From an uncultured Staphylococcaceae bacterium (GTDB lineage Bacteria > Bacillota_I > Bacilli_A > ML615J-28 > CAG-313): DNA of 64,000 nucleotides. The position numbers and the translations under genes are program-made. Within the stretch, counting starts at the first letter, position 1. Each line of letters begins with the position of its first letter. The stretch spans positions 17,620 through 81,619 of the forward strand of contig CAYPEY010000002.1 of assembly GCA_964409955.1 (NCBI GenBank), read 5' to 3'. This document shows, one piece after another, positions 2,638-55,115 of the stretch. The notes under the pieces were generated by a model, which saw nothing but the letters and a program-made list of their open reading frames with translations, did no database searches and was not told the origin of the DNA.

Positions 2638-3623
2638 AATTTAACACCAAATCTTCTGATAAATTTTCCTACTTTTTTTCTGAAATAATATTTCTTTAAA
2701 CAACACTTTGGTGATTTTTTCCATTGTTTTAAAAAGTTACTTTTGTAATATTCTTTTTGGATACAGGCATTTTTTAATAAATTATAATATTTTGTTTCTT
2801 TCAAGTAATTCAAAATTTTTTTGGGAGTTTCATTACCATTTAATACAGTTAAAATAGAAAATTCTAATATTCTTGGAATATAAAAATGTAATAATGTATT
2901 TTTAATTACATTAATTCGTTCATCATTATATTGGTCAGCATAATTCACAACTCTTAACATGGCATCTACCGCATCAAAATGTCTATAATCCAATTGCTGC
3001 ATAACAGAGTTTTGATTAATATAATAATTATATACAGCATCATCATTAAAAGTTATATTTTTTGTATGAATCATGTATTTGAATGTAAACTCTTGATCTT
3101 CTCCAGTTCTACAATTAGGAGTAAATTTAATGTAGTTTTGTTTTATTATTTCGGTTTTAAAAATACATCTATAACAAGAAATATATAATCCCTCTAAAAT
3201 AGGCCAACAAAATCGATTAACATCTATTTCATTAATTCTTATATAAGAAGTTTCACCATTGTCAAAAACTTTCAATAATGAACCAATTGATAAATCTGCT
3301 TTTATTATACTTTGATACAAATATAAAACATAATTTGCATCATACCAATCATCACTGTCCAAAAACATTATGTATTCTCCAGTTGCTTCATCTATACCTT
3401 TATTTCTAGCTACAGCAACACCTAAGTTTTCCTGATTTACTACTACAATTCGATTATCTGTATTAGCATATTCTAAGCAAATATTTAAAGAATTATCTGT
3501 TGAACCATCGTTAATAAGTATTAATTCTATATTTTGATATGTTTGATTTAATACACTCTCTATACATCTATTTAAATATTTTTCTGCATTATATACAGGA
3601 ACTATAATACTTATTAAATCCAT
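2634..3623 (-). CDS. Glycosyltransferase family 2
   Basis: SIIVPVYNAEKYLNRCIESVLNQTYQNIELILINDGSTDNS is the classic GT2 N-terminal signature with DxD (DSDD). Confidence 0.8.
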   Translation of the reverse strand: MDLISIIVPVYNAEKYLNRCIESVLNQTYQNIELILINDGSTDNSLNICLEYANTDNRIVVVNQENLGVAVARNKGIDEATGEYIMFLDSDDWYDANYVLYLYQSIIKADLSIGSLLKVFDNGETSYIRINEIDVNRFCWPILEGLYISCYRCIFKTEIIKQNYIKFTPNCRTGEDQEFTFKYMIHTKNITFNDDAVYNYYINQNSVMQQLDYRHFDAVDAMLRVVNYADQYNDERINVIKNTLLHFYIPRILEFSILTVLNGNETPKKILNYLKETKYYNLLKNACIQKEYYKSNFLKQWKKSPKCCLKKYYFRKKVGKFIRRFGVKL

Positions 3624-4216: not shown

Positions 4217-5410
4217 CTACATTTCTTCTAATATTGAATAAATTTTTTCAATTTCTTGTTTATTACTATAATCTCTTTTGGAAATATTATATTTAATTTT
4301 TTCTTGTAATTCTTTATTGTTTATAAAATCATATATTCCCTTTGCACATAAATCATTATCAAGAGGAACTATAATTCCGTCAACTCCATCTTCAAGTTGA
4401 CTTGTTGCTGTTGAAAAATTAGTTATTATAACTGGTTTTTCAAGTATTTGAGCTTCTCTCACTGTTACTGCTTTGCCTTCGTATCGTGACGGTTGAACAT
4501 ATATATCGCATGCATTAATATAGGGATACGGATTTTCTTTTTTTCCTAAAATAATAACATTATATTCAACATTATATACTTTAATTTTATCTTTAATAAT
4601 TTGTTCTTGTGACCCATAACCAATAATATACCATTTAACATCTATTCCCATATCTAATATTTTCTTGCAAATATATGGTATATTATCGAAATTTTTAGCC
4701 TCACAAAATCTACCTATTGACAATAACGTTATTTGCTCACTATTATTAACTAGATTTTCATTTAATGATTGTTTTACAATATTTTCTTTAGATAATATAT
4801 TTTCTATCGTAATCAATTTATTTTTTAAAGAAGGAAAAACAATTCCAAAATTAGTTGTTACATCTTGAGACACTCCTACAATAAAATCGTATGGTCGCCA
4901 CATTTTTTCTTGTGATTTTTTATCTAATGCTATGTTCTTATAATCTGTATGTATCCATGCTAATTTTTCTTTTGCTTTTATTTTTTCTTTCACAAAATAA
5001 TGCGGAGCAATAAAACTTATAGCTAAATCATATTCTATTTTTTTTTGAATTTTCGGCATCAACCATTTTGTGTATTTATGATTATAATCGCCATTAATGA
5101 CACCATTTTTAGAATTTTTAGATTTCCTTTTTGCCTTAACTCTAGCAAACAATTTTGATATAAAAATTAATATGTTTCCTTTTTTTAAGTTTTGTCTTAT
5201 TGATGTCTCTATCAACTTGTATCTTTTATTTTCTGCCAACAAATTAACTGTTTTAGGAATATTTTTCAACAATTCTCCTTCATGTGAATTTAAAAACAAA
5301 TCCACTTGATATTTAGAATAATCAAAAGATTCTAATAAACCTATCAAACTACGCTCAGCACCTCCTAAATGCATAGAGCTCATCCAAATAAATATTTTTT
5401 TCATAATCAT
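4217..5410 (-). CDS. Glycosyltransferase family 4
   Basis: MSSMHLGGAERSL N-terminus and C-terminal YEGKAVTVREAQILEKPVIITN motif. Confidence 0.75.
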   Translation of the reverse strand: MIMKKIFIWMSSMHLGGAERSLIGLLESFDYSKYQVDLFLNSHEGELLKNIPKTVNLLAENKRYKLIETSIRQNLKKGNILIFISKLFARVKAKRKSKNSKNGVINGDYNHKYTKWLMPKIQKKIEYDLAISFIAPHYFVKEKIKAKEKLAWIHTDYKNIALDKKSQEKMWRPYDFIVGVSQDVTTNFGIVFPSLKNKLITIENILSKENIVKQSLNENLVNNSEQITLLSIGRFCEAKNFDNIPYICKKILDMGIDVKWYIIGYGSQEQIIKDKIKVYNVEYNVIILGKKENPYPYINACDIYVQPSRYEGKAVTVREAQILEKPVIITNFSTATSQLEDGVDGIIVPLDNDLCAKGIYDFINNKELQEKIKYNISKRDYSNKQEIEKIYSILEEM

Positions 5411-8320: not shown

Positions 8321-9199
8321 TTAATATTTCTTTTTTGTATTTTTAATATATAAATAATACATTAAACCAAAGGGTAAAAGTATAATTGCATAGAATTTTT
8401 TAGAACATTTTTTTATATAATGTTTTTCTTTTGCAAATTTACTTTCCGCAATATAATGTATCATATTTTTAATAATAAATTTCTTTGATTTAGAAATTCT
8501 CATCATTTCATTTCTAAAATGTGCAAACCCTTTTGCACAAGATTTATATTGTGCAAATTTTGCATATGTCATTGAATCCTCATTATAATCAACTACACAA
8601 GTTGCTTCATTTAATATAAGTAATTGATAATTTTGATCTAATAATTTAAATTTGTAACTTGCAGGATAAAACTTTTCTCCTTCAAATTCTGGATAAGGAT
8701 AAAGTTTAGATAAAGATGATTTGAGAATCAATTTCTTGTCTCCTTTAACTTTATACTTTCCAAAAATATCAAGAGTAGTTGAATGTGAAATCTTAGGAAG
8801 CGGACTTCCTATTATTTCGTTTTTAGGTGTTATGTTATTGGAAATAATACCATAGTATTTATCACTTTTATTTTCTTTCCAAAAACTAGTAATTTTTTCT
8901 ACAGCTTCATCTGTCATCCAATCATCTGAATCTATAATTACATTAATTTCTGTATGAACATTTTCATATGCAAGATTTCTTGCTGTATGCATACCACCAT
9001 TAGGTTTATAAATATATTCTATTTCAATTTTATTTTCTTTTATCCAACTATCAACTAAATCTTTAGTATTATCACTTGATCCATCATCAATAATTAACCA
9101 CAAAAAATCATTTGATGTTTGTCTTAATAATGATTCATATACTTGATGTAAGCAATATGCTCTATTATATGTAGTTGTAATAACTGTTAAAGTTTTCAT
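8321..9199 (-). CDS. Glycosyltransferase family 2
   Basis: LTVITTTYNRAYCLHQVYESLLRQTSNDFLWLIIDDGSSDNT and a later DSDD motif. Confidence 0.8.
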   Translation of the reverse strand: MKTLTVITTTYNRAYCLHQVYESLLRQTSNDFLWLIIDDGSSDNTKDLVDSWIKENKIEIEYIYKPNGGMHTARNLAYENVHTEINVIIDSDDWMTDEAVEKITSFWKENKSDKYYGIISNNITPKNEIIGSPLPKISHSTTLDIFGKYKVKGDKKLILKSSLSKLYPYPEFEGEKFYPASYKFKLLDQNYQLLILNEATCVVDYNEDSMTYAKFAQYKSCAKGFAHFRNEMMRISKSKKFIIKNMIHYIAESKFAKEKHYIKKCSKKFYAIILLPFGLMYYLYIKNTKKKY

Positions 9200-16757: not shown

Positions 16758-17021
16758 ATGATAATCATACCAATGCGTGATTTAAAAGATACGGTCAACA
16801 TAGAAAAACGATGTAAAGAAGCTAATGGACCTGTTTTTGTTACTAAAAATGGATATGGTAAATTAGTAGTCATGGATATATCTTATTACGAAAAATTAAT
16901 AAGTAAAATAAAAGAAGCTAAATTAATTAACCAAGGTTTATCAGATATAAACAATAATGAAGTTTTAGATGTAGAAACTGTAATGAAAAATATAGCTGAT
17001 AAATATGGATTTAAAAAATAA
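16758..17021 (+). CDS. Type II antitoxin, Phd/YefM family
   Basis: MIIIPMRDLKDTVNIEKRCKEANGPVFVTKNGYGKLVVMDISYYEKL matches the Phd/YefM fold pattern. Strong RBS AGGAGGTG. Overlaps the downstream toxin ORF by 17 nt. Confidence 0.65.
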   Translation: MIIIPMRDLKDTVNIEKRCKEANGPVFVTKNGYGKLVVMDISYYEKLISKIKEAKLINQGLSDINNNEVLDVETVMKNIADKYGFKK

Positions 17022-17325
17022 ATATGCTTTTACTAAAACTGCATATAAAGATTTAATAGATATTTTAAATTATATTTCTATAACTCTATCTAATTATAGA
17101 GCTGCTGAAAAATTATACAAAAATATCTTGCAAAAACTTGATCAATTAGTATATTTTTCAAATATGGGAGAAACAGTAAACAATACTTTTTTTAACAATA
17201 AAAATGTTAAAATAATAATGATAAACAAATTTAAATTGTACTATATTTTTTCTGAAGAAGAAAAAGAAATTATAATCTTAAGAATTTTATATTCTAAACA
17301 AATTCTTAAATTTTTAGAACTATAA
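17005..17325 (+). CDS. Type II toxin, RelE/ParE superfamily
   Basis: 106 aa. The N-terminal YAFTKTAYKDL and C-terminal KLYYIFSEEEKEIIILRILYSKQ resemble the RelE/ParE pattern (…yrliY.vd…v.vlrigHR…). Translationally coupled to the Phd-like gene. Confidence 0.5.
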   Translation: MDLKNKYAFTKTAYKDLIDILNYISITLSNYRAAEKLYKNILQKLDQLVYFSNMGETVNNTFFNNKNVKIIMINKFKLYYIFSEEEKEIIILRILYSKQILKFLEL

Positions 17326-17431
17326 TTTTTATAAGTAAAAACCTGTTCACAATTTGAAATAGTCAAGAAATTCATAACAATATCTATGATATATCTTTAT
17401 ATATATGATTGTTTTCTGCAATTTTCTTAAC

Positions 17432-17480
17432 AAAAGACTACAAATTTACTTTGTTTTCTAGTAAGTTTGTAGTCTTTTTC
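17432..17480. terminator. Bidirectional hairpin between the convergent parE-like and abiEii genes
   Basis: 12-bp perfect stem aaagactacaaa / tttgtagtcttt with a loop of about 22 nt, flanked by A- and T-runs. Confidence 0.45.
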
Positions 17481-17538
17481 TTTATTGGCTTTCTAATCTT
17501 TTGTATAATAAACTTTTAGTTAATCCAGTAATATTTCG

Positions 17539-18696
17539 CTACTGCTTTAATATGTCAATCAACTTTTCTAATCTAACGCTATCCTTCACAAACATTTTTT
17601 TATTTTCATATTCAATTACATAATACTTAGAATATGTATTTGTTTTATTACCAAAATTTAAAGTAAAATCGTCACTACAAATATATTGAAATAATATTTT
17701 ATTAATATTATTTATTTTATTTTTAAGTTCACTAGAAGAGCTACAATATATTGTAGATATTTTTTTTCTTTCTAATTCGTAGTTTACTCCCCATTTTGAT
17801 ACATCATATTTTATCAGTGATAAATTTATTTCATTAGATTTTAATTGTAAAATTCTTTGTTTAAAATAATTATTAGACCATATAGATATAAAATCAATAT
17901 TATCTAAAAAAGAAAATAAGTCTTTTTTAGCAATGTTTAAATCAATAGATTCTATTTTATCTATTAACATTTTTTGTACATCTAATATAGTTAAATTAAC
18001 ATTATCTTTTAAATGTCCTGTTTGAATCATTCTTTGTGACAAATGATGAACATTTAAAATACAATTATTCTTTATATAAAAATCTAGATCATACAAATCT
18101 CTTCCCTTTACTCTATTTTTCCATCCCCTACATAATACTGCATGCACTTTTCCAGCAAATAATGATGCTTCATCATATATTTTAATTTTATGAATTAAAG
18201 GAAATTCTTTTGTTTTATACTCATATGTTGCTCCAGCTGGCGGATTTACATCTATTTCAAACTTGATTTTAATTACTTCATTTTTTTGAATATGATTAGC
18301 TACATCATTTAACGGGTTTATTAATAACAAATGTTCTAACGTATTTCCTTTTAAAAATGCAGATTGGATATTTGATTCTTGTGTTTTTTCTTTCAATACT
18401 GGTTCAAAGTTTAACCCAAATTTTCTGAATGTATTAGAAATACTTGAAAAATATTTTTCTAAATTAAAATTTGAATTATGATTACATAAAGAAAAATCAA
18501 GACCCTCACTAAATCTATTTAACCCATAAAATATTCTCAGAGCTGTACCACCATAAAATGCAGCATGATCAAAAAAATCAGTTAAACTTAATGCATATAA
18601 AGTTATTTCTTGTACAATTTCTTTAAATGCATTGATATATTGTTCTTTTGTAGAACAATTATATTTAGTTAACATTTGTTCTATTAATGTTTTCAT
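17539..18696 (-). CDS. abiEii: AbiEii/AbiGii-family nucleotidyltransferase toxin (type IV TA / abortive infection)
   Basis: FYGGTALRIFYGLNRFSEGLDFSL is the DUF1814/AbiEii signature. ATGA overlap with the upstream antitoxin. Confidence 0.8.
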   Translation of the reverse strand: MKTLIEQMLTKYNCSTKEQYINAFKEIVQEITLYALSLTDFFDHAAFYGGTALRIFYGLNRFSEGLDFSLCNHNSNFNLEKYFSSISNTFRKFGLNFEPVLKEKTQESNIQSAFLKGNTLEHLLLINPLNDVANHIQKNEVIKIKFEIDVNPPAGATYEYKTKEFPLIHKIKIYDEASLFAGKVHAVLCRGWKNRVKGRDLYDLDFYIKNNCILNVHHLSQRMIQTGHLKDNVNLTILDVQKMLIDKIESIDLNIAKKDLFSFLDNIDFISIWSNNYFKQRILQLKSNEINLSLIKYDVSKWGVNYELERKKISTIYCSSSSELKNKINNINKILFQYICSDDFTLNFGNKTNTYSKYYVIEYENKKMFVKDSVRLEKLIDILKQ

Positions 18697-19280
18697 AAGT
18701 TATCCCCCAATAACATTTTCTTTAAAATTTTTAAATTTTTTCTTTTATAATAATCACAAATAGATATAATAGCTTCTTTATTTAACTTTGAAAAGTCTTC
18801 TTCATCAATTCTTAAATCATCAAACAATAATTCCTTTAATTGTTTTACTGAAGTTACTTGTGGTTTTTTGTATAATAAATCACACAAAGCTTTTTCAGGA
18901 GTTGCTATCATATAAGTATAATTATTCTCTTCTTTTATTATAATACCCATATTCCAAACATCTACTGGAATATCAGTGTAATAATAATTACCAAATATAT
19001 TACTTATATACTTATTATGCCTTTTTAAAGTTGTTGCAGAAGTATATACTTTGACTTGTTCTAAAATCAATCCATACTTTGATAATGCATATTCGAATGA
19101 AAGATATGATGGAGATTCTATTACATTAGCTAATAAATATCCTTCTACATTAATATTATCTTCGTATATACCTCTATTAACCTTATAAAACTTTCCACTA
19201 TCAATTTCTCTTTTAATTTTATCTTTTGGATTACTATAATTTTTATATTTTTCTAATAATTCTTTTGTAGTTAATATCAT
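18693..19280 (-). CDS. abiEi: AbiEi-family antitoxin / transcriptional regulator
   Basis: About 195 aa with N-terminal ILTTKELLEKY...GKFYKVNRGIY typical of AbiEi_4. The ATG at 19280 has a GGTGA RBS; the track's GTG start at 19289 is probably an over-extension. Confidence 0.75.
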   Translation of the reverse strand: MILTTKELLEKYKNYSNPKDKIKREIDSGKFYKVNRGIYEDNINVEGYLLANVIESPSYLSFEYALSKYGLILEQVKVYTSATTLKRHNKYISNIFGNYYYTDIPVDVWNMGIIIKEENNYTYMIATPEKALCDLLYKKPQVTSVKQLKELLFDDLRIDEEDFSKLNKEAIISICDYYKRKNLKILKKMLLGDNL

Positions 19281-19496
19281 TTTGCTCACCCAAGTCCAAT
19301 TTTATCATACTTCGTTGAGCAAATCAACATATATACATTTAATTATTCTAATTTAATAACATCTCAAAAAATATAGTTTTTATTTTAACACCTTACCTTT
19401 ACGCTTACATTTACCTAATAAGTAAGCGTGAAAGTAAAGTAATTAAATATTATACTCTTATTCTATAATCAAAGAGTTTCTTGTACATTCCTTTAT

Positions 19497-19931
19497 TTAT
19501 AATTTTTCAGAACCATTATCTTTTTTAATAACTTCTTGAATTAAATTTAAATAATTATCTGTAGCAGATATTGTTGGAACTTTATTTCGGACAAAACCTT
19601 GCATTATATATTTTCGCAAAATCTCTATTGCAAACCTTCTAAAAATTATCCCACGCTTACTTTTAACGCGATATCCAACAGCTAATACAACATCAAAATT
19701 ATAATATTTTACATCATTTACAATTTTGATATACTCTACATTTTTTTCTAATTCATTAACTTTATAGCTATTTCTTACATGTCGTAGTATAGTAGCTCTT
19801 TCTTTACGAAATAAAGTTGACATACCATCTAGTGTTAACCACACCGTTTCATCATTAGGCATAATTAAAACTTCAATTTCTTTTTCTCCATCTTTAAATT
19901 TTACAATTTCATAGTTTTTTTCTTCAATCAT
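19497..19931 (-). CDS. RhuM-family protein, N-terminal fragment only (144 aa; full-length RhuM is about 330 aa), likely a gene remnant
   Basis: FKDGEKEIEVLIMPNDETVWLTLDGMSTLFRKERATILRHVRN...VLAVGYRVKSKRGIIFRRFAIEILRKYIMQGF matches the RhuM N-terminal half. The region downstream is non-coding. Confidence 0.55.
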   Translation of the reverse strand: MIEEKNYEIVKFKDGEKEIEVLIMPNDETVWLTLDGMSTLFRKERATILRHVRNSYKVNELEKNVEYIKIVNDVKYYNFDVVLAVGYRVKSKRGIIFRRFAIEILRKYIMQGFVRNKVPTISATDNYLNLIQEVIKKDNGSEKL

Positions 19932-20163
19932 TTTCTTTTCCTTCCTTTTTTAAAAAATAAAAAAGCGGCCAATTAACTAAAACAAAAGTATCCTATTAAA
20001 AAATAGGATTAACTCTCATTTTATTTAATTAGCCGCGTACGTCTCTTGCGCGAATGAACTTACCGTTTATTCTTTGGACTAGTAAATCATCAATATAAAT
20101 ATTATCCCAAAAGACTAGATAATAGATTTTAAAACTTGACTTTTTACAACTTAAATTATATCA
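19929..20163. repeat. Inverted repeat, left copy (about 235 bp; pairs with 24305–24540); contains an internal 8-bp-stem hairpin ATCCTATTaaaaAATAGGAT
   Basis: The reverse complement of 24305–24540 matches this segment base for base, with one 1-nt indel near the outer end and two mismatches near the inner end. The outer end is the ATG of the RhuM-fragment gene. Confidence 0.9.
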
Positions 20164-23403: not shown

Positions 23404-24071
23404 TTTTTTACCACCTTATATCCAAGACCTCTCATAGTTACAATTTCAAAGTCGGGATTATCTTTAAATTTTTTTCTAAGACGCTCTATATGTACATCTA
23501 CCGTATGCATATCACTATCAGAATCAAATCCCCAAATATCCATCATTAATTGTTGTCTTGTAAATATTTTACCAGGATATGTTACCATCTTATAAAGGAC
23601 TTGAAATTCCTTTAGAGGAAGCTCTACTTTTTCTCCATTCGATATAACTATAAAAGAATCATATTCAAGTACTGTATTACCAATTATTTGGCGTCTTTCA
23701 CTAGTCATTTTGGCGCGTCTTAAAAGAGCTTCTGCTCTTATTACCATTTCATTAACATTAACAGGTTTTGTCATATAATCATCACTACCCGATAAAAAAC
23801 CTAGTCTCATATCTGAGAAAGATGTTTTTGCGGTGATCATCATTACTGGAATTGTTGATCCTGATTCTCTTAATGAACTAACAAGCTCATACCCATCCAT
23901 CTCCGGCATCATTATATCACTAATAATTAAATCATAATAATTTTTATCAAGTTCATCTAGTGCTTCTTTTCCGTTTGAAACAGTTTTTACTAAATAACCT
24001 TTCTTAATAAATACACTTTGAAATAGTTGTCTTAATTCTCTATCGTCTTCTGCAATTAATATCTTATTCAT
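23400..24071 (-). CDS. OmpR-family response regulator
   Basis: KILIAEDDRELRQLF...DLIISDIMMPEMDGYEL receiver domain plus a C-terminal winged-helix (RGLGYKVVKK). RBS GGGAG. Confidence 0.85.
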   Translation of the reverse strand: MNKILIAEDDRELRQLFQSVFIKKGYLVKTVSNGKEALDELDKNYYDLIISDIMMPEMDGYELVSSLRESGSTIPVMMITAKTSFSDMRLGFLSGSDDYMTKPVNVNEMVIRAEALLRRAKMTSERRQIIGNTVLEYDSFIVISNGEKVELPLKEFQVLYKMVTYPGKIFTRQQLMMDIWGFDSDSDMHTVDVHIERLRKKFKDNPDFEIVTMRGLGYKVVKK

Positions 24072-24101
24072 AATAAACTCCCATTTACACTAATTATATT
24101 T

Positions 24102-24130
24102 ATTATAACATATATATATCTTTTTTGCAA
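24102..24130 (-). promoter_or_regulatory. Sigma-A-type promoter of the RR-HK-degV-GNAT operon
   Basis: On the minus strand: TTGCAA, 17 nt spacer, TATAAT, about 30 nt upstream of the RR start codon. Confidence 0.5.
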
Positions 24131-24190
24131 AAATTAACATATCTAAAATATAACAAAAAAATTATTTTTTTGTTATAATATATATACCAA

Positions 24191-24265
24191 GTCCCTGTAG
24201 TTAAATGGACATAACGAGGTCCTCCTAAGACCTTATTGCAGGTTCGATTCCCGCCGGGGACGCCA
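24191..24265 (+). tRNA. tRNA-Arg (anticodon CCT)
   Basis: Hand-folded cloverleaf: acceptor GTCCCTG/CGGGGAC (one G·U pair), D-arm GTTA..TAAC, anticodon stem AGGTC/GACCT with loop CTCCTAA (U33, CCT, A37), T-arm GCAGG-TTCGATT-CCCGC (one A·C mismatch), discriminator G and encoded CCA. Confidence 0.75.
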
Positions 24266-24304
24266 TATATTTTTTTAACATTATTTTTGATTTCAAAAAG
24301 AAAA

Positions 24305-24540
24305 TATGATATAATTTAAAATGTAAAAAGTCAAGTTTTAAAATCTATTATCTAGTCTTTTGGGATAATATTTATATTGATGATTTACTAGTCCAAAGAA
24401 TAAACGGTAAGTTCATTCGCGCAAGAGACGTACGCGGCTAATTAAATAAAATGAGAGTTAATCCTATTTTTTAATAGGATACTTTTGTTTTAGTTAATTG
24501 GCCGCTTTTTTATTTTTTAAAAAAGGAAGGAAAAGAAATG
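24305..24540. repeat. Inverted repeat, right copy (pairs with 19929–20163); the outer end is the ATG of the AlbA_2-family gene
   Basis: See left copy; the identical sequence includes AAAAGCGGCCAATTAACTAAAACAAAAGTATCCTATTAAAAAATAGGATTAACTCTCATTTTATTTAATTAGCCGCGTACGTCTCTTGCGCGAATGAAC... Confidence 0.9.
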
Positions 24541-25923
24541 TTACATAAATTAATAGTAGAATGTTCAGATTATGATTTTAAAGAAAAATTAGAAATTAAT
24601 AAGCCAAAAAGTTGGTTAAAGAGTGTCTCAGCATTTGCAAATGGAATCGGTGGTACCTTATTCTTTGGTATAGCAGATGACAAAAATTTAGTTGGTATTG
24701 ATAACCATCAATATATATGTGAAAAAATTTCCGAATTAATTAATTCACGAATCGACCCTATACCTACTTATACAATTAATCCATATAGTGAAGATGGTGT
24801 TATCTTTTTAGCATTAAATGTATCTCCTGGTCCTTTAACACCTTATTGTTATTCATCTAATGGTATAACAGAAGCATATATTAGATGTGGGAACCAAACA
24901 ATTAAAGCACCAGGATATGTTTATGCTGAATTAGTATTAAAAGGTAAAAATAAAACGTATGATTCTCTTATTACCCATTATTTAAAAAAAGATTATTCTT
25001 TTACTTTTTTTGAAGCAACTTTTTTTGAAAGAACCCTAACAAGAATTAAAAATTCTGACTATATTTCTTTTTCACTAGCAACTGATGATGGATATTTAAC
25101 AAATGCAGGTGTATTATTTTCAGACCAAAATATATACAGACATAATCGAATTTTTTGTACTAGATGGAATGGATTAACTAAAACTTCTCTTGAAGAGGCT
25201 TCTGATGATAATGAATATACTGGTGGAATTGTAAAGTTACTTGATTCAGCACTTAATTTTGTAAAAATTAATACTAAGAAAAAATGGAAAAAAGAACCAA
25301 GTGGTAGGGTTGAAATGCCTGAATATGATGAAATAGCGGTAAAAGAAACTATAGTAAATGCATTAATACACAGACAATATACTAATCTAGGTTCAGAAGT
25401 AACAGTAGATATATATGATGATAGAATCGAAATCACATCTCCAGGACCACTAGCTTCTGGCCATCAAATAAATAAAGAAATCAAAAATACAATACCATCC
25501 ATAAGAAAAAATCCTATACTTGCAGATGTATTTGTTAGAATGAAATATATGGATCGTCGCGGAAGTGGGTTTGATAAAATAATTAATGGAACAAACAGAT
25601 TATTTAAAGATAATAATAATCATGTAGAAATTTTTGCGACAGATATATATTTTAGAGTGGTCATCTATAATGCAAATTATGAAATTGACAATATAAATGG
25701 CAACACAAATGACGATATAAATGGCGATATAAATTTAACAAAAAATGCAAAAATAATATTAAAAGCAATCATCGAAAATCCCTGCATTACAAGATATGAA
25801 TTAGCAAAAATTATCAACAAATCCGAAAGAACAATAGATAGGTTAATTAAAGAATTAAAATTAAATGGCTATATTAGCGAAAAAGAAATATATAAAACAG
25901 GTAATTGGAAAATAATCAAATAA
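24538..25923 (+). CDS. AlbA_2 (Schlafen-like) DNA-binding domain + HATPase_c_4 (RecG C-terminal-like) + C-terminal wHTH protein; putative ATP-binding transcriptional regulator often found in defence islands
   Basis: KSWLKSVSAFANGIGGTLFFGIADDKNLVGI (AlbA_2 signature). ETIVNALIHRQYTNLGSEVTVDIYDDRIEITSPG (HATPase_c_4 signature). Confidence 0.65.
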   Translation: MLHKLIVECSDYDFKEKLEINKPKSWLKSVSAFANGIGGTLFFGIADDKNLVGIDNHQYICEKISELINSRIDPIPTYTINPYSEDGVIFLALNVSPGPLTPYCYSSNGITEAYIRCGNQTIKAPGYVYAELVLKGKNKTYDSLITHYLKKDYSFTFFEATFFERTLTRIKNSDYISFSLATDDGYLTNAGVLFSDQNIYRHNRIFCTRWNGLTKTSLEEASDDNEYTGGIVKLLDSALNFVKINTKKKWKKEPSGRVEMPEYDEIAVKETIVNALIHRQYTNLGSEVTVDIYDDRIEITSPGPLASGHQINKEIKNTIPSIRKNPILADVFVRMKYMDRRGSGFDKIINGTNRLFKDNNNHVEIFATDIYFRVVIYNANYEIDNINGNTNDDINGDINLTKNAKIILKAIIENPCITRYELAKIINKSERTIDRLIKELKLNGYISEKEIYKTGNWKIIK

Positions 25924-25937
25924 TTACTAAGTATAAT
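25908..25937 (+). repeat. Direct repeat copy A (gaaaataatcaaataattactaagtataat), covering the last codons and stop of the AlbA_2 gene
   Basis: Matches 26991–27021 with a single 1-nt indel. Confidence 0.8.
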
Positions 25938-26085
25938 TAATGTTTAAATGATAAAGATATAAGATAAATTATTTTTCATAAAAAAACTATAAATATGTGT
26001 ATTATTACTACATATAATATTAGTATATTAAAAACTTTACAAAAGAATTAACATATGATATCATATGTATATAAGAGGTGATACT

Positions 26086-26541
26086 ATGCCATTTAATCAA
26101 AATGAATATATATCAAATTTCAATAAGAATAATTATAAAATGTATCAATTTAGGGTTAAGAAATCAGACACTAATATTATTAATCATTTAGATAATATAG
26201 AAAATAGAAATGGTTATATTGTTTCTTTAATTAATACTGATATAAATAATTCTATTTATACAATAAAAGAAATTAAGAATATTATTAAACCAATTCTTAA
26301 TAAACACGGAATAACAGAAATTTATCTTTTTGGATCATACGCTAGAGGAGAGGCAAAAGAGTCAAGTGATATTGATATTTATTGTAATAAAGGAAATATT
26401 AAAACATTTATAGATCAAGGGTTACTTGAAGATGAATTAGAAACATCTTTAAATAAAAAGGTTGATATTATATTTGATTCATCTTATATTGATGAATATT
26501 TTAAAAAACAAATAATGGAGGATATGATTAAATTATGTTAG
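26086..26541 (+). CDS. mntA: MntA-type nucleotidyltransferase antitoxin (Pol-beta superfamily)
   Basis: EIYLFGSYARGEAKESSDIDIY (GS-x9-DxD NTase motif). The true start is the second ATG of the track ORF, preceded by the AAGAGGTGA RBS. Overlaps the downstream HepT-like gene by 7 nt. Confidence 0.7.
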   Translation: MPFNQNEYISNFNKNNYKMYQFRVKKSDTNIINHLDNIENRNGYIVSLINTDINNSIYTIKEIKNIIKPILNKHGITEIYLFGSYARGEAKESSDIDIYCNKGNIKTFIDQGLLEDELETSLNKKVDIIFDSSYIDEYFKKQIMEDMIKLC

Positions 26542-26870
26542 GGGTTAAAGATAGAGGGATATTGTTACAAATTATTAAAAGATGTAATCGTATTATTGAA
26601 AAAATATCCGATATAAATGAAACAGAATTTGCTTTAAATGATGACATTGAAGAAGTTATTTGTTTTAATTTATTTCAAATTGGAGAATTAGCTAATGGTT
26701 TATCAGTTGAATTTGTAAAAGAATATAATAAGATTCCTTGGAAACAGATAATTGGTATGAGAAACAGAATTGTTTATGGATATGATACTATTAATTTAGA
26801 AATAGTTTGGAATACAGCAAACGAAAGTATTCTTGAATTAAAAGATTATTGTAAGAACATTTTAAAATAA
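26535..26870 (+). CDS. hepT: HepT-like / DUF86 toxin (putative RNase of the HepT-MntA module)
   Basis: 111 aa. The GMRNRIVYGYD region corresponds to the DUF86 Rx4HxY motif, with Tyr where His is expected. Coupled to the MntA gene. Confidence 0.6.
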   Translation: MLGVKDRGILLQIIKRCNRIIEKISDINETEFALNDDIEEVICFNLFQIGELANGLSVEFVKEYNKIPWKQIIGMRNRIVYGYDTINLEIVWNTANESILELKDYCKNILK

Positions 26871-26990
26871 GAATTTTTTGCTTGTTACAAAAATTAGGTC
26901 ATTCCTACAAAAGATACATTTTAAGAAACCTGTAGATCTTCTAGTAGAGTAGATCTATTTTTTATTTTATAGCGTATCTAGAAGTGCGAT

Positions 26991-27021
26991 GAAAATAATC
27001 AAATAATTACTAAAGTATAAT
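26991..27021 (+). repeat. Direct repeat copy B (gaaaataatcaaataattactaaagtataat), immediately followed by the terminator
   Basis: Matches 25908–25937. Confidence 0.8.
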
Positions 27022-27052
27022 AAAATCCTGTTCTTATGAACAGGATTTTTAT
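27022..27052. terminator. Bidirectional rho-independent terminator (thiN operon on the minus strand; original terminator of the AlbA_2 gene on the plus strand)
   Basis: aaaatcctgttc-ttat-gaacaggatttt perfect 12-bp stem with an A-run before and a T-run after. Confidence 0.7.
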
Positions 27053-27196
27053 ATTGATTATTCTTTTTCTTTTGAAAATAATTTAAGAAAAAAGCAAATT
27101 ATTTTTGAAAGAAATCTTGGTAATTTAATAATACGAAAATGCATAAGAATCCTCCTAGTTATTACATTATATGTGCTAGGAGATTAAATATTCATT

Positions 27197-27829
27197 TTAG
27201 TAATTAATAAATAAAAAGATGCCACCTTTATTTACTTCAATAATAGGATGAGTATTATTATTTAATCTTTCATTACTAATTAGATAAGTATCACTTGGTT
27301 TGATTGTTTTATCAAATAGTGGATACTTAGCATTTTCTATAGATACTACTGAAGTAGTATTTGTAAATATTGAAAAATATTTAACTTTTTGATTTTTTAT
27401 TTTATAAGATGATTTTGCTTTTAAATACATTACTTGATTTTCTTCATCAATTAATTTAATTGAATAATTAGAATATTTAGCAAGTAACATATATGTATTA
27501 TATTCATGATCAAGTCTACCATGTGTTGCATCATAGATTTCAACTTCTAAATCAATTGCGCCTTTTAATGTATCAAGATGCATTAATGCAAGTTCTAAAT
27601 CAGTTTCATTTTTTTCTTTAGGATGAATTGATACTTCATAAGAATTAGCTTTAATTAAATCTAAATCTTGTGCTGAATCAAAATCTCCTATAGCATAATC
27701 AATCTTTATTCCCATTTTAATTAACTCTAAACAGCCTGAATCTACTCCTATATAATAATCCGATGGATTTCTATGATACAGTTTAGTAAAAGTTTTATTA
27801 GGAGCACCAGCTACTATAATTATTTTCAT
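27197..27829 (-). CDS. thiN: Thiamine diphosphokinase
   Basis: KIIIVAGAP...DYYIGVDSGCLELIKMGIKIDYAIGDFDS TPK motifs. ATGA overlap with rpe. Confidence 0.8.
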   Translation of the reverse strand: MKIIIVAGAPNKTFTKLYHRNPSDYYIGVDSGCLELIKMGIKIDYAIGDFDSAQDLDLIKANSYEVSIHPKEKNETDLELALMHLDTLKGAIDLEVEIYDATHGRLDHEYNTYMLLAKYSNYSIKLIDEENQVMYLKAKSSYKIKNQKVKYFSIFTNTTSVVSIENAKYPLFDKTIKPSDTYLISNERLNNNTHPIIEVNKGGIFLFINY

Positions 27830-42966: not shown

Positions 42967-45900
42967 TTATAAACTATTTGGTAAAATTGTAGATAATGTT
43001 ACAGTCTTAGTTGTTGAACCTTCTACATATGTTACTGTATAAGTAACACATTCAACATTAGATGGAAGAGATGTAACACGACCTAAGTTATTAATATAAC
43101 TAGAATTAGATGCAAGTGAAACTGAAGCAGAAGTTGTTCCTGTTTCATATAAAGCCATTTGTTGTCTAGTTAATTCAACAAATTCATACCAAATTTCTAA
43201 ATCATTTTCAAGTAATGGTTGAGGACAATCTTTACCTGAGAAGAAATGGTGACCAACTAAACGATTAAGTGGTAAATTAAATTGTAATAATAACTTAGCA
43301 CAAAGTTGAGCTGAATATTGCCATGTTAACCATAAATCAGAAAGTACTCTTACACTTGATTCAATACCAATTGAGTTCAAGTTACCACCTAATGAACAAA
43401 TATAACCATATGAACTATTATAATAATGTCCACCAAGATACCAAGTTGTTCCTACTAGTTTTACACCAAGACCCATATCATTCATCTTTGTATAACTATA
43501 ACCTGTTGTATTCTTAACTGTTGTTTTTACACCTTTAATATAGAAGTAGTTATCACTACCACAAGTTACATCTGTTGTATAAACATCTGTTCCAACTTGT
43601 GAAGTTGTAACACCAGATGAAGCCCATGTCATAGTTTTTGATGTACCTGCATGCCATGCGCCATAAGCAACATTTTGACAATACCAAATACCATCATTAC
43701 CTGTAGAATAGTTCCATGAAGCACCTGTACCATTAGTATTACATGTTTTATTATAAGATGCTAAGTTTTTACCACCTGTTAAAGCATATTTTGCTTGATT
43801 AGCTGCACTAGCTGCAGTTCCCATATCAGCCGCATAGTGGAATGTAATAAAGTCAACTCCACCTGTACCAGTACCTGTAAGTGTTGTTTTATTAGCAGGA
43901 CTTGATAAATAATAATCTGTATGTTCTACATATGGTGTAAATAATAATTTAGATACACTTCCAATAACATCATAATAATATTCAGGAGTACCAGCACCAA
44001 TAGCAAGATTTGTTCTTGTGAAAATACTTGTATTATTACTATCTGCAATTACTTTTAACATACCAGTTGGTTCATCATTAAATACTGTTACATAGAATGT
44101 GAAATAGAAATAATCACTATATGGAGATTGAGCTTTAATTGTTGCAACACCTTCTGATACACCTGTTACTACACCACCTGCTACAGTTGCAATATTTGGT
44201 GTTTCAGATACCCAAAGAATTTCTTCATTTGCGCCACTTTCATAATAAGCACTTAATTCAATTTGTTCTCCAGCTACAACCCAAGATTGTTCTTCAAATG
44301 AACCGATGATTTCATCATCTAAAATCCAACGAGCAATAACTGTAGTATCAGCTGTAAAGTCTGAACCTTTTGTATATTTTACATTATTTTCATCATACCA
44401 ACCAGCAAAAATATAACCTGTTCTTGAAGGAATTATTAAATTTGTATTTTGATTTATTTCAAATACTGTACCAGTTGTCGATTGAGTAACTTTACTAAAG
44501 TTAACTGTTAAAGCATTTGTTGTTGTAGCTGTTGTGATATCACCACTAAATGCAACAACTAAACCTTCTGTAACTTTATTTACATCAAAATTAGCTGTTC
44601 CTGTTCCTGCATAACCTGTATAATATACAATTACATATTCTGCAGTTGTTGGAGCATCTGGTTTAGTTCCTGTACTTGGATCAACTGGAAGAGATACACC
44701 TACAACTACATATTGACCAGTTGTAGAATCTTTTGCAAGATAAATATGAGTCCATGCTTTTGCTGTTGTTGAGCTATGTGGAAGACTATATACAAAGATA
44801 TCATTAGTATATCTTTCTGTTGTAAAGTGACTACCACCATTTGCATTATTATAGTTATTAACAACTAAAGTAGTAACAACTTCTGTACCTGTGACAGTAC
44901 CTGCAGTTGTTCCACCGTTTAAATCAAATGTTACTGTATAAGTAATTAATTCTTCCCATTGCGCATATAACACTACGTTATCAGTGCCTGATTGTTTATA
45001 TGTATCAATGTAATCAGTAGATGAAGATTTAAGAGTCCAACCTAAGAAATGATATCCTTCACGTGTAGGAGTATAAAGTGTAACATTAGTATCAACTACT
45101 GCAATTTGAGATTCATCTCCTACACCTTCATTTAAGATATAAACGATTGTATAAGTTGCATCTTCAATTACATTATAATATGTATCTGCTGCATAAGCTT
45201 GAGCTAATTGTGCTCCTGTATAAGTCGCATAAGTATATCCTGCAGGATAAGTTCCATTAGTCCAACATTCATATGAACCTGTAAATGTACAATTAATGAA
45301 TACGTTATATGCATAAGTTGAATTTGTACCTTGATATGAAGTAGTAGAAAGTCTAATAACTGAATCTACATATGTATTATATTTAATATTAGCTTTTCCT
45401 GTACAATTGTATAACATTAAGTTAGTACCTGTTGAATTAGTTATATGGTTACCAACAAATTCAATAGTACCTGTAGTAGATTTGAAGTTTTTAATTTCGA
45501 TAGAAGTACATTCTCCACCATTATAACCAGCGATTATATTATTCATAATATAAACATTTGTACAACCACTACAATCACCAAGTTCAATAAAATAATTGTC
45601 TGTTTCATCAATAAGTGTATTATTTGAAATATTAACATTACCTGTCATAGTAGTAAAGCTAAATGGAATACCAGCAGCTGAATCATTAATAGAAACGTAT
45701 GAATTAGTGAATTCAAAATTATTAACAACACTTGCAGCTTTAATGAATGTATTATCTGAATTATATCCTGTGCAACGTAAATTTGTTAATACTATATTAG
45801 AAACAGAATTAAGAGTTATACCACTACCTCCAATTGAAATACCATCAATTGTAACGTTGTTTGCTGAAATTGTAACAGATCCGTTAATTGTTGCTTCACT

Positions 45901-48399
45901 ATTTCTTGTTGCTGTACCAGCTATACCAGCATTAGGACCTAAAATTGTTACGTTAGCTACGCTTACTGTTACAGTTTCTGCGTATGTACCAGGCATTACA
46001 TAAATAATAGAACCTTCTGTTGCTGCTGCAAGACCAGCTGTAATTGTTGTATAAGTTTGGTTAGCACCAACAACAATACATTGTGCTTGATCTAATTCAA
46101 ATGATGCCCAAAGAGTCATATTACCTGTTGTGCCTTGACTAATTTGAGTTACTTTATTAGTTAACGATTCTTCTTTATACCAACCAAGGAATGTATAGCC
46201 TTCTTTTGTTGGTGCTAAGAATGTAAAGCTTGTTTCTACTGTATAAATATTAATATTTTCTTCATTTTGAACACTATCATTTAATTCATAATTAATTGAA
46301 TAATAAATTGGATCATAAATAGGTTCAAGAGTTACATTTTCTGTAATACTTGAGAAATCATAATCCCAATATGATGTATAACCTACTTTAGCTGGGATTG
46401 TTGGGATATCAGTTAATGCTTCATTTACTTTAACTGTTTTTTCGATATTACCACTTTCTAAAACGAATGTAACTGTACGAACGTTATTATTACCAATTGT
46501 TAATGTTGCACTCATTGCTGCAATTGCTTTATAGTTAGGATTATTGTGAGTAAAGTTTGCAACTACTGTATATGTACCAATTTCAGTTTGATTATTACCT
46601 GTATAAGTTACTGTTACACCTGTAGGAAGAGTTCCGCTAATTGCAAGTGATTTAGTTGTACCATCATATGAATATTCTTTACTTGCAAATGTGATACCAC
46701 TCATGTTGTATTCACCTTGTTCAATAGTTAAAGTTGCTGACATTGATTCAGGGTTATTATAATTTCCTGTAGTATCAACAAAATTAGCTACTACTATATA
46801 TGTACCAACATTTGTATTTTCATTATTATCATAAACTACTTTAAGACCTGCTGGAAGACCTGCAACCGCTAATGATTGAATGAATTGTGTATATGTAACA
46901 GTTTTATTTTCAAATGATACACCACTCATATCATAATCAGCTTTATTAATTACAAGTGTTGCCTCAAGTGCTGGAACATCTGAATAATTACCAGTTGTAT
47001 CATTAAATACAGCTTGTACAATATATGTTCCGGCATTTGTTTGATTATTATTAACATAAGAAACAGTTACACCTTCTGGAAGTGTTCCACTAATTTCAAG
47101 TGAATGAGGATTTCCATCATAAGTTACTGTTTTTCCATCAAACGTAACACCTGTAAATGGATTAGCTTTAATTGTTAAAGTAGCTTGTAAAGATGTAGGA
47201 TTATTATAGTTTCCTGTAGTATCTGTAAAGTTTGCTACGACTGTATATGTTCCAATTTCAGTTTGTCCATTGCCTGTGTAATTTACTGATAAACCTGCAG
47301 GAAGGGCACCTTGAACATAAATATTTTGAGCACTACCACTATATATTACTGACTTATCAACAAAAGTAACTCCTGACATATCATAATCAGCTTTATTAAT
47401 TGTAAGAGTTGCAGTCATTGGTTCTACTGGATTATATTCAATATAATCATGATTGAATATTGCTGTTACAGTATATACACCTGCATTTACTTGACCATTA
47501 TTTTCATAAATAACTTCGAAGAATTCAGGTAAATCACCTTCATTTGAAATTTCAATCGAATGAGCATTGCCATCATATGTTACTGTAACATCATTAAATG
47601 TAATATTAGATAAATCAAAATCTAATTTATTGATACTTAAATTACTTGCAAGTGGAGCAATACTGTTATAGTTAGGATTATTATGAGTAAAGTTTGCTAC
47701 TACTATATATGTTCCAGCTTCAGTTTGATTATTATTTTCATAAGATACACTTACACCTTCAGGTAAAGTTCCTTCAATTTGAAGAGAGTGAACTTCTCCA
47801 TTATAAGTAACTGATTTACCCGGTAATACAACACTTGACATATCATAATTAGCTTTATTAATTGTAAGCGTTGCAGAAAGTGGAGCAATAGTTCCATATA
47901 TTCCTGTTGTATCTATGAAATTTGCTGTTACTGTATAAGTTCCTGCATTTACTTGACCATTACCTGTATAAGATACACTTACACCTTGAGGTAAAGTTCC
48001 TGTAATTTCAATTGAATGAGCACTTCCATCATAAGTAACAGTTTTATTATTTAAACTAATTCCAGTAAGAGTTTGATTAGTTTTTTCTTTAATAACAAGA
48101 TTTGCTGTTAAATTAGGAATAGGTTTATATTTTTCTGTTGTATCTGTAAATGATGCAACAACAATATGTGTGCCTACTTTTGTTTGTTCATTTCCTACAT
48201 ATGTTACTGTAATACCTTCTGGTAAATTACCAGCAATATATATAGAATGAGCATTTCCATCATACTCTACCTCTTTACTTTCAAAAGTGATACCAAATTC
48301 TTCAAAAGAAAAATCTTTTTTCTTAGATTCTTTCGTACAACCTACAAAAGTTAGAAGTAATAAAATAGTAAATAAACTAAATATTATTCTTTTCTTCAT
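42967..48399 (-). CDS. Giant surface lipoprotein (about 1810 aa): 8 tandem MBG repeats, three Listeria-Bacteroides repeats, a right-handed beta-helix region, a Big_2 domain and a C-terminal split N-acetylmuramoyl-L-alanine amidase (Amidase_2/PGRP-like) domain
   Basis: Lipobox LTFVGC. Eight repeats of about 80 aa (VTYDGxAHSIEI.G.LP.GVSV.Y.GNGQ...GTYTV.ANF). GYTFLGWYKEE, GYHFLGWTL and GYIFAGWYDEN repeats. NVTIDGISIGGSGITLNSVSNIVLTNL beta-helix rungs. ANEEILWVSETPNIATVAGGVVTGVSEGVATIKAQS (Big_2). Amidase_2 motifs ITFHYAAD, WNYSTGNDGIWYCQNVAYGAWHAG, NSIGIE and VGHHFFSGKDCPQP. The true start is an ATG 10 codons inside the track ORF, with RBS AAAGGAGAAGAAA. Confidence 0.6.
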   Translation of the reverse strand: MKKRIIFSLFTILLLLTFVGCTKESKKKDFSFEEFGITFESKEVEYDGNAHSIYIAGNLPEGITVTYVGNEQTKVGTHIVVASFTDTTEKYKPIPNLTANLVIKEKTNQTLTGISLNNKTVTYDGSAHSIEITGTLPQGVSVSYTGNGQVNAGTYTVTANFIDTTGIYGTIAPLSATLTINKANYDMSSVVLPGKSVTYNGEVHSLQIEGTLPEGVSVSYENNNQTEAGTYIVVANFTHNNPNYNSIAPLASNLSINKLDFDLSNITFNDVTVTYDGNAHSIEISNEGDLPEFFEVIYENNGQVNAGVYTVTAIFNHDYIEYNPVEPMTATLTINKADYDMSGVTFVDKSVIYSGSAQNIYVQGALPAGLSVNYTGNGQTEIGTYTVVANFTDTTGNYNNPTSLQATLTIKANPFTGVTFDGKTVTYDGNPHSLEISGTLPEGVTVSYVNNNQTNAGTYIVQAVFNDTTGNYSDVPALEATLVINKADYDMSGVSFENKTVTYTQFIQSLAVAGLPAGLKVVYDNNENTNVGTYIVVANFVDTTGNYNNPESMSATLTIEQGEYNMSGITFASKEYSYDGTTKSLAISGTLPTGVTVTYTGNNQTEIGTYTVVANFTHNNPNYKAIAAMSATLTIGNNNVRTVTFVLESGNIEKTVKVNEALTDIPTIPAKVGYTSYWDYDFSSITENVTLEPIYDPIYYSINYELNDSVQNEENINIYTVETSFTFLAPTKEGYTFLGWYKEESLTNKVTQISQGTTGNMTLWASFELDQAQCIVVGANQTYTTITAGLAAATEGSIIYVMPGTYAETVTVSVANVTILGPNAGIAGTATRNSEATINGSVTISANNVTIDGISIGGSGITLNSVSNIVLTNLRCTGYNSDNTFIKAASVVNNFEFTNSYVSINDSAAGIPFSFTTMTGNVNISNNTLIDETDNYFIELGDCSGCTNVYIMNNIIAGYNGGECTSIEIKNFKSTTGTIEFVGNHITNSTGTNLMLYNCTGKANIKYNTYVDSVIRLSTTSYQGTNSTYAYNVFINCTFTGSYECWTNGTYPAGYTYATYTGAQLAQAYAADTYYNVIEDATYTIVYILNEGVGDESQIAVVDTNVTLYTPTREGYHFLGWTLKSSSTDYIDTYKQSGTDNVVLYAQWEELITYTVTFDLNGGTTAGTVTGTEVVTTLVVNNYNNANGGSHFTTERYTNDIFVYSLPHSSTTAKAWTHIYLAKDSTTGQYVVVGVSLPVDPSTGTKPDAPTTAEYVIVYYTGYAGTGTANFDVNKVTEGLVVAFSGDITTATTTNALTVNFSKVTQSTTGTVFEINQNTNLIIPSRTGYIFAGWYDENNVKYTKGSDFTADTTVIARWILDDEIIGSFEEQSWVVAGEQIELSAYYESGANEEILWVSETPNIATVAGGVVTGVSEGVATIKAQSPYSDYFYFTFYVTVFNDEPTGMLKVIADSNNTSIFTRTNLAIGAGTPEYYYDVIGSVSKLLFTPYVEHTDYYLSSPANKTTLTGTGTGGVDFITFHYAADMGTAASAANQAKYALTGGKNLASYNKTCNTNGTGASWNYSTGNDGIWYCQNVAYGAWHAGTSKTMTWASSGVTTSQVGTDVYTTDVTCGSDNYFYIKGVKTTVKNTTGYSYTKMNDMGLGVKLVGTTWYLGGHYYNSSYGYICSLGGNLNSIGIESSVRVLSDLWLTWQYSAQLCAKLLLQFNLPLNRLVGHHFFSGKDCPQPLLENDLEIWYEFVELTRQQMALYETGTTSASVSLASNSSYINNLGRVTSLPSNVECVTYTVTYVEGSTTKTVTLSTILPNSL

Positions 48400-55114: not shown

Positions 55115-55115
55115 A

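Follow-up and report, generated by a model that had tools for sequence, protein, structure and literature searches.

A mntA-hepT toxin–antitoxin module probably spliced once between an AlbA_2 gene and a shared bidirectional terminator

Class I HepT/MntA pairs are encoded by adjacent genes for a PF01909-type MNT and a PF01934/PF08780-type HEPN protein and are defined by two motifs, GSX10DXD in the MntA adenylyltransferase and RX4HXY in HepT, the latter comprising the arginine and histidine of the RNase together with the tyrosine that receives AMP (PMC7641770). The HepT/MntA pair of Shewanella oneidensis (SO_3166/SO_3165) is a type VII HEPN/MNT toxin–antitoxin (TA) system, and canonical MNT antitoxins have been described as having no DNA-binding domain (PMC7641770). 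Here we analyse a mntA-hepT cassette in a 64,000-nt stretch of DNA (G+C 27.6%; hereafter the window, in whose coordinates all positions are given) from an uncultured Staphylococcaceae bacterium, where the cassette lies downstream of an AlbA_2 gene and between two copies of the 3′ end of that gene. We find that the arrangement is best explained, with better than even probability, by a single illegitimate or short-homology recombination that spliced the module between AlbA_2 and a shared terminator and duplicated 30 bp.

Two known routes of DNA acquisition provide points of comparison for such an arrangement. Islands that target the 3′ ends of genes, classically tRNA genes, keep the gene whole at one of their junctions and leave a short displaced copy of its end at the other, the two forming the attL and attR direct repeats, and a repeat of about 30 bp is within the usual range of an att core. 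Homology-facilitated illegitimate recombination, or short-homology insertion during natural transformation, usually deletes recipient DNA and does not duplicate it. The features of the window that bear on these possibilities are the following:

24538 to 25923, + strand: AlbA_2 (Schlafen-type)/HATPase_c_4/winged helix-turn-helix protein, 461 aa (PF04326, 7.9e-22; PF13749, 1.6e-19; PF13412, 1e-5)
25908 to 25937, + strand: direct repeat copy 1, the last 16 nt of the AlbA_2 open reading frame (ORF) and 14 nt of 3′ flank (sequence matching, shuffles)
25938 to 25999, + strand: filler of 62 nt from copy 1 to the start of cassette homology, its origin without known source
26000 to 26883, + strand: conserved mntA-hepT module with promoter, operator and both genes (blastn)
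26036 to 26068, + strand: promoter, -35 TTTACA at 26036-26041 and TG-extended -10 TATCAT at 26059-26064 (promoter scan)
26086 to 26541, + strand: mntA, minimal nucleotidyltransferase antitoxin, 151 aa, GSX10DXD intact (PF18765, 5.6e-14; PF01909, 5e-12)
26535 to 26870, + strand: hepT, HEPN/DUF86 toxin, 111 aa, motif RNRIVYGY (PF01934, 1.3e-20)
26775 to 26777, + strand: codon TAT (Tyr81) in place of the catalytic His of RX4H (homologue comparison)
26932 to 26964, + strand: weak terminator-like hairpin after hepT, 8-bp stem then T6 (fold z -1.35)
26991 to 27021, + strand: direct repeat copy 2, a displaced copy of the AlbA_2 3′ end whose final 7 nt belong to the lower stem of the terminator (matching, folding)
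27022 to 27049, both strands: bidirectional intrinsic terminator common to the + strand AlbA_2/TA block and the - strand rlmN-rsgA-rpe-thiN-small-ORF operon (terminator scan, folding)

The repeat is non-random. Its 23-nt core, GAAAATAATCAAATAATTACTAA, has exactly two copies in the window, at 25908-25930 and 26991-27013, with no third on either strand; allowing up to 3 mismatches on both strands still gave only these 2, where 0.01 would be expected, and two or more were never reached in 100 dinucleotide shuffles. It is also the longest substring common to the two cassette flanks, for which shuffled sequences gave a mean of 10.5 nt and a maximum of 15. Past the core, copy 2 carries one additional A, after which both copies continue with GTATAAT, and identity then ends abruptly at the outer edges of both. 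Because of the extra A, the copies measure 30 nt (25908-25937) and 31 nt (26991-27021) and do not form the perfect 31-mer implied by a preliminary description of this locus, which had reported 31-bp direct repeats; the duplication itself is real and lies where that description had placed it. The copies start 1083 nt apart and are separated by 1053 nt. Two further details of the same description were recovered as given: copy 1 consists of 16 coding nucleotides, which end with the AlbA_2 stop codon (25921-25923), and 14 non-coding ones, and a mini-ORF (ATG AAA ATA ATC AAA TAA, 26989-27006) lies across the start of copy 2.

The least probable of the accounts that we weighed, and one that deserves hardly any credence, is that the repeat arose by coincidence in AT-rich DNA or through faulty assembly, the TA pair being an old resident of the intergenic region. 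Low-complexity, A/T-rich matches are indeed common at 10-15 nt in a sequence with the base composition of the window, but an exact match of 23 nt plus 7 more is far beyond the shuffle distribution, the two copies fall exactly on a gene end and exactly on a terminator, and the nearest relative (L041/L042; loci retrieved for comparison are designated by L and a number) does not have the cassette. The 23-nt repeat is shorter than typical assembler k-mers, and Logan contigs from two separate runs (SRR14307658 and SRR14307642) match the window base for base, with 100% identity across the region and neither contig broken by the repeat, so that a one-off assembly artefact is unlikely. Apart from the cassette pair, direct 20-mers are shared in the window in four stretches only (46927/47377, 47480/47942, 47740/47968 and 62936/63044), all of which lie within two repeat-protein genes, namely an 1820-aa Flg_new/amidase surface protein ORF (42967-48429) and a Sel1-repeat protein ORF (62779-63930).

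The right-hand junction suggests which copy is in place. A hairpin with a 12-bp stem and a 4-nt loop begins right after copy 2, as the preliminary description had noted, and folds strongly in both orientations (+ strand, -18.2 kcal/mol, z -6.8; - strand, -15.7 kcal/mol, z -5.95). That description took it to be the terminator of AlbA_2 itself, an assignment that we revise in view of the convergent operon (rsmB-rlmN-rsgA-rpe-thiN-small ORF), whose last two genes are:

27058 to 27144, - strand: 28-aa ORF MHFRIIKLPRFLSKIICFFLKLFSKEKE with an AGGAGG ribosome-binding site, at the end of the convergent operon (conserved in L041, L043 and L044)
27197 to 27829, - strand: thiamine pyrophosphokinase, used as a housekeeping yardstick (Pfam; nearest relatives 71%, then at most 61%)

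On the minus strand the hairpin begins 8 nt past the stop codon of the 28-aa ORF. This ORF directly follows the thiamine pyrophosphokinase gene in L041, L043 and L044, and in all three the small ORF and the terminator are conserved downstream of thiN with no AlbA_2 gene there; it is thus no less the terminator of the convergent operon than of AlbA_2, and in annotation it should be assigned to both transcription units. The 7 nt with which copy 2 ends take part in its lower stem, and this pairing suggests that copy 2, and not copy 1, is in its original context.

Beyond the window, the module (about 0.9 kb) was found in at least eight other flanking contexts on AT-rich gut metagenome contigs (23-29% G+C), with blastn identities of 82-87% over its full length, 85-91% in three partial copies and 71% in L055. 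The preliminary description had proposed a search for the same unit with different flanks, and such loci exist, at 82-91% DNA identity and with unrelated surroundings (L032/L022-type, L039, L040, L049, L051-L054 and L057). DNA similarity between these loci and the window is restricted to approximately 26000-26883, with a left boundary anywhere from 25988 to 26051 and a right boundary from 26851 to 26921 (26921 in L051). L022-L040 represent one abundant lineage, in which the cassette follows a small-ORF array downstream of an RHS-type gene and precedes either an Abi_2 gene or fragment (L022-L038 and L040) or an AAA_23/MC2/CTD6 cluster (L039); L049, L051-L055 and L057 have nothing in common with L032 beyond the cassette and differ among themselves in their neighbouring ORFs. 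Several of these copies include an upstream hairpin terminator, which the window copy does not have. A lone cassette promoter with a 5′ fragment of mntA was also found at L062 4929-5132 (78% identity to window 26015-26212), about 9 kb from the complete cassette L049 on the same metagenome contig.

Together, these comparisons provide good support for horizontal acquisition of the module among AT-rich gut bacteria. MntA has 1642 homologues at E values up to 1e-5, of which the best 120 clusters are nearly all 86-93% identical, while AlbA_2 of the window has no non-self homologue above 70% and its thiamine pyrophosphokinase has one best relative at 71% and then none above 61%. The cassette is about 90% identical in protein and 84% in DNA, promoter included, and the pyrophosphokinases of the cassette-bearing genomes are absent from the near matches, which argues for transfer between lineages. 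In the nearest relative (L041/L042, 71% protein and 78% DNA identity for pyrophosphokinase), thiN, the small ORF and the terminator are followed by a promoter-leader and an unrelated gene, with no AlbA_2 and no TA genes; this gene resembles an AbiEi N-terminus by eye and has no Pfam match. In more distant relatives the same three features are followed by housekeeping genes (an aminotransferase gene, rpmB). Because relatives carry other content at this site, the block from the tRNA-Arg gene to the terminator is lineage-specific. Its left neighbour is:

24191 to 24265, + strand: tRNA-Arg(CCT) (ARAGORN; Rfam tRNA, 56 bits)

We considered this tRNA gene as an integration site and rejected it, as its 3′ end is not repeated downstream.

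How the module entered the locus can be approached from what its other copies lack. At the ten other cassette copies, the longest substring shared between flanks was 9-13 nt, equal to the shuffle expectation, compared with 23 nt in the window. The ends of the insert aligned as terminal inverted repeats with a score of 17, against a shuffle mean of 17.5, and no member of the recombinase, transposase or integrase families was detected among the window's 56 ORFs of at least 110 aa. With no transposase, no inverted repeats, no repeats at the other ten copies and variable ends, a transposon that generates a target-site duplication is not supported. The proposal of a mobile cassette inserted with target duplication thus stands in part: the module does circulate with other flanks, but the duplication does not appear to be encoded by the element and looks like a one-off recombination scar.

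The same observations bear on site-specific integration, in which the repeats would be the attL/attR-like cores of a small non-autonomous cassette that targets the 3′ ends of AlbA_2-family genes, restores the gene end in the manner of tRNA-targeting islands and depends on a recombinase acting in trans, which might be encoded elsewhere in the genome. We consider this quite improbable. The geometry is that of elements targeting gene 3′ ends, with the intact end at one junction and the displaced copy at the other, and in L053 the cassette again lies next to the remnant of an AlbA_2-type gene. Against it, there is no integrase or transposase in the window, the 23-mer is missing from the 118 other fetched loci and is carried only by identical copies of this locus, the ten other cassette copies are without flanking repeats, the cassette boundaries differ between contexts, and the dyad symmetry that recombinase core sites typically show is at chance level in the repeat. 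A search for carriers among phages, plasmids and viral contigs was likewise negative: it recovered no phage records and no viral contigs, and only two Enterococcus plasmids with an 11%-coverage match. A more specific version, in which a miniature att-flanked TA cassette dedicated to the 3′ ends of AlbA_2-family defence genes rebuilds the gene end on insertion and is mobilised in trans, with L053 as a second, decayed example, appears slightly less probable still.

As transposition is unsupported by flanking repeats elsewhere, by inverted repeats or by a recombinase, we favour a single recombination event. A self-contained module, with promoter, 18-bp operator, two overlapping genes and a weak terminator, would have been acquired horizontally and spliced in once, between the stop-codon region of AlbA_2 and the bidirectional terminator. 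The splicing event, and not machinery encoded by the element, would have duplicated the 30 bp of target (16 nt of ORF and 14 nt of flank), so that the AlbA_2 end would be left intact and the displaced copy would abut the terminator. No terminator was detected between AlbA_2 and the cassette, where folding of 25900-26010 stays at background level (z +0.49), and AlbA_2 transcripts would probably read through to 27022-27049. The empty-site junction that we reconstruct under this account reads ...AACAGGTAATTGGAAAATAATCAAATAATTACTAA(A)GTATAATAAAATCCTGTTC....

Several points weigh against this account, for which we infer both the direction and the mechanism of insertion. We know of no simple mechanism that predicts a 30-bp duplication, and the event is reconstructed and not observed. 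Homology to other cassettes does not reach the repeats, leaving a gap of 62 nt on the left and of 13-107 nt on the right, and the insert is thus partly without a known source; the 62-nt filler (25938-25999) has no similarity to any other cassette locus, and on the right side homology plus the terminator-like tail ends about 13 nt before copy 2. No genome was found in which AlbA_2 joins the terminator directly. When AlbA_2, HepT, thiamine pyrophosphokinase and the response regulator were looked up as exact proteins, all contigs recovered were 100% identical to the window, and with no variation among the copies of this strain a strain-level empty site was not found. The high identity of the cassette may partly reflect purifying selection and not recent transfer, although the non-coding promoter region is conserved as well. 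Lastly, the loss of HepT toxicity discussed below is read from its motif alone.

The relatives of AlbA_2 bear on another explanation. The flanking protein has the SLFN_AlbA_2, HATPase_c_4 and winged helix-turn-helix architecture, with all three domains above Pfam gathering scores, and more than 6000 homologues share it. The closest non-self homologue among 5.8 billion proteins searched is 70% identical. A scan of genome collections gave 16 loci at 35-72% identity, none of which has TA genes, thiN or the repeat nearby, and AlbA_2 is therefore not syntenic. The closest of its homologues, L121 (70% protein and 76% DNA identity), is similar within the ORF only, from start to stop codon. A C-terminal G-x-W-K-I-[IL]-K motif is present in most of 11 AlbA_2 homologues checked, and several homologues have what by eye look like terminator hairpins about 10-70 nt from the stop codon, which is consistent with an ancestral arrangement of AlbA_2 followed by a terminator. 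A conserved element of about 100 nt lies 3′ of the homologues in L121 (6076-6260), L008, L013 and L015, and is not present in the window; its pattern is ...CCAAAATGTCC...AATGTGGG...AAATAACAA.TATACGCATCAAGGTATAATGCTTTGGTGCTTTT, and it could be a 3′ untranslated structure or a small RNA.

Under this further explanation the locus would be the scar of an allelic replacement, by homology-facilitated illegitimate recombination, in which an incoming AlbA_2 allele together with the TA genes recombined homologously on the left, within AlbA_2 or its leader, and illegitimately on the right. The right join would immediately precede the final 16 nt of the AlbA_2 gene already in place, and copy 2 would be a remnant of the older gene. 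In L053 the cassette is followed by a 5′-truncated and frameshifted HATPase_c_4/AlbA_2-type pseudogene in the same orientation (2886-3234), and the homology with L121 that runs from start to stop codon only suggests that AlbA_2 ORFs are exchanged as modules; because of these two observations, copy 2 is possibly the last remnant of an older AlbA_2. Tandem and fragmentary AlbA_2 copies in L011 and L017, the one-base difference between the repeat copies, which fits two diverged alleles, and the recent rearrangement of the locus, where a 217-nt leader shares 100% identity with an inverted copy at a distance of 4 kb, point in the same direction. However, the 14 nt of 3′ flank are also shared, which requires near-identical allele ends while the rest of the old gene is gone, and the donor arrangement (AlbA_2, 62 nt, cassette) is in no collection searched. 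We regard allelic replacement as the main rival, though an unlikely one, and retain the single splicing event as our preferred account of the junctions.

The module itself is compact, with mntA and hepT as its only genes. Pfam bears out the preliminary gene identities (AlbA_2, a nucleotidyltransferase mntA and a DUF86 hepT), giving AlbA_2/HATPase_c_4/winged helix-turn-helix, MNT nucleotidyltransferase and HepT-like HEPN proteins, and the promoter attributed to the cassette in the same description scores as a sigma-70-type promoter at 26036-26064 (TTTACA, 17 nt, TG-TATCAT). A perfect 18-bp palindrome, ACATATGATATCATATGT, at 26051-26068 overlaps the -10 box and is a putative operator; it is invariant in 10 of 10 aligned contexts, while its flanks vary. 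The Polbeta and NTP_transf_2 matches were computed on the 26065/26086-26541 ORF, within which we place the mntA start at the ATG at 26086 because a ribosome-binding site (AAGAGGTGA) precedes it; hepT overlaps mntA by 7 nt. The NCBIfam models NF047752 (MntA, 44.5 bits) and NF047751 (HepT, 44.1 bits) scored below their curated cut-offs of 60, and the two proteins are family-level relatives and not NCBIfam equivalogs. Downstream of hepT, the hairpin region 26916-26977 is 86% identical to L057 116-177 and 81% identical to L051 1916-1971 by blastn. Similar terminator-like hairpins stand in intergenic regions at unrelated positions of cassette-bearing genomes (L051 1916-1971 and approximately 4838-4885; L057 116-177), forming a family with the pattern AAATCTGTAGGTCTTCT...AGATCTATTTTTTATTT.ATAG to which the window cassette tail belongs.

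The adenylyltransferase motif GSX10DXD is present in MntA as GSYARGEAKESSDID (residues 83-97), invariant in 15 aligned homologues, and MntA would be expected to AMPylate the tyrosine of the HepT RX4HXY motif and thereby neutralise the RNase. MntA also has a conserved N-terminal extension of about 58 aa with the invariant pattern YKMYQFRVKK...I-I..LD...N...YI..LI..D. The first 60 aa have no Pfam match at E values up to 10 and no PDB match, and the MntA chain 5yep matches residues 75-129 of the window protein only; in an AlphaFold2 model the mean predicted local confidence (pLDDT) is 58.7, with residues 1-55 below 50. The strand-helix-helix pattern of the extension would fit a ribbon-helix-helix domain, and, as an invariant palindrome covers the -10 box, it suggests autorepression, in which the extension would probably bind the palindrome and regulate its own operon.

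The toxin half appears to be in decay. HepT of the window reads RNRIVYGY where RX4HXY is expected (H81Y), so that the arginine and the AMP-acceptor tyrosine are kept and the motif is not complete. The substitution is unique to the window, as all other homologues retrieved (about 35 distinct sequences, from 86% to approximately 25% identity) have histidine at this position. Because a tyrosine replaces the catalytic histidine, the window HepT is probably inactive or attenuated, and the module likely decaying or antitoxin-only; hepT should not be annotated here as an active toxin. Independent hepT lesions occur in L049 (3941-4270; W69 to TAG), L053 (2499-2831; Q12 to TAA and W69 to TGA) and L052 (4335-4665; a frameshift), making four lesions among about eleven cassette contexts, and mntA is intact in the window, L049, L053 and L052 despite them. 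The toxin half thus decays repeatedly after transfer.

Upstream of AlbA_2, the window contains a leader that is more unusual than the cassette insertion:

24322 to 24538, + strand: promoter-proximal leader upstream of AlbA_2, with an approximately 30-bp hairpin (24434-24505) and U-tract at its end (identity; folds z -5.3 to -6.8)

These 217 nt are an exact inverted copy of 19932-20148 on the minus strand (237 nt at 98.7%), and the two copies end essentially at the start codons of AlbA_2 and of a RhuM-AbiEi-AbiEii operon. With nhmmer, copies were found in L009, L010, L041 and L042; diverged copies precede AlbA_2 homologues in L009/L010 (7784-7999) and a different gene in L041 (1082-1296), and in L043 a 5′ fragment follows thiN (8873-8983). 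In three lineages the 3′ half forms a hairpin of about 30 bp with a U-tract before the ribosome-binding site (-35 to -39 kcal/mol, z -5.8 to -6.8), a structure kept despite sequence divergence, with compensatory changes in 11 of 42 pairs by RNAalifold. A search of Rfam at E values up to 1 over 23900-27400 returned the tRNA only, so the leader matches no family, and its core had no match in viral contigs. The leader looks like a portable promoter and conditional terminator for defence genes, and through its oppositely oriented copies the intervening 4.2 kb, with GNAT, DegV, histidine kinase, response regulator and tRNA-Arg, could become inverted. The second copy borders another defence/TA island (16758-19931), which comprises Phd/YefM and ParE (16758-17325, + strand), AbiEii (17539-18696, - strand), AbiEi (18693-19289, - strand) and a short RhuM-family protein (19497-19931, - strand; PADLOC PDC-S05/S23).

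On the other side of the terminator, the 28-aa ORF is similar to SpoVM of Bacillus (MKFYTIKLPKFLGGIVRAMLGSFRKD) and occupies the matching rpe-thiN-spoVM position; Pfam at E values up to 10 gave no match for the ORF. As genes for FtsZ, SpoIIGA and two sigma factors are also present in the window (53510-61383), the source organism may be able to sporulate.

The locus provides a small and clean example of a promoter-to-terminator TA module moving between distantly related gut bacteria without mobility genes, and of how a junction appears after such a transfer. Compared with the HepT/MntA system of Shewanella oneidensis, the window has the same order, in which the MNT gene (PF01909) comes first and the HEPN/DUF86 gene (PF01934) follows directly and overlaps it, and it keeps GSX10DXD and the AMP-acceptor tyrosine, with the structural match to 5yep over residues 75-129. 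It differs from that system in the tyrosine that stands for the catalytic histidine of HepT (RNRIVYGY), in the MntA extension of about 58 aa that matches nothing in Pfam or PDB, in the invariant 18-bp palindrome over the -10 box, and in equivalog scores of 44 bits against a cut-off of 60; the N-terminally extended MntA and its invariant, putative palindromic operator would add modestly to type VII TA biology. Unlike islands that target gene 3′ ends, the element is only 1.05 kb long, has no integrase, and carries a cargo whose other insertions are without the repeat. The one-off junction without element ends, the boundaries that vary between genomes and the filler of unknown origin are instead like the products of illegitimate recombination, from whose usual outcome the window departs in showing a duplication of recipient DNA. 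The H81Y substitution, and the lesions in L049, L053 and L052, are in turn like those of chromosomal TA modules that decay by toxin inactivation in defence or variable islands, a fate to be expected of them. The module is of the known type VII TA kind, and its insertion looks like a one-off scar and not a new mobility mechanism.

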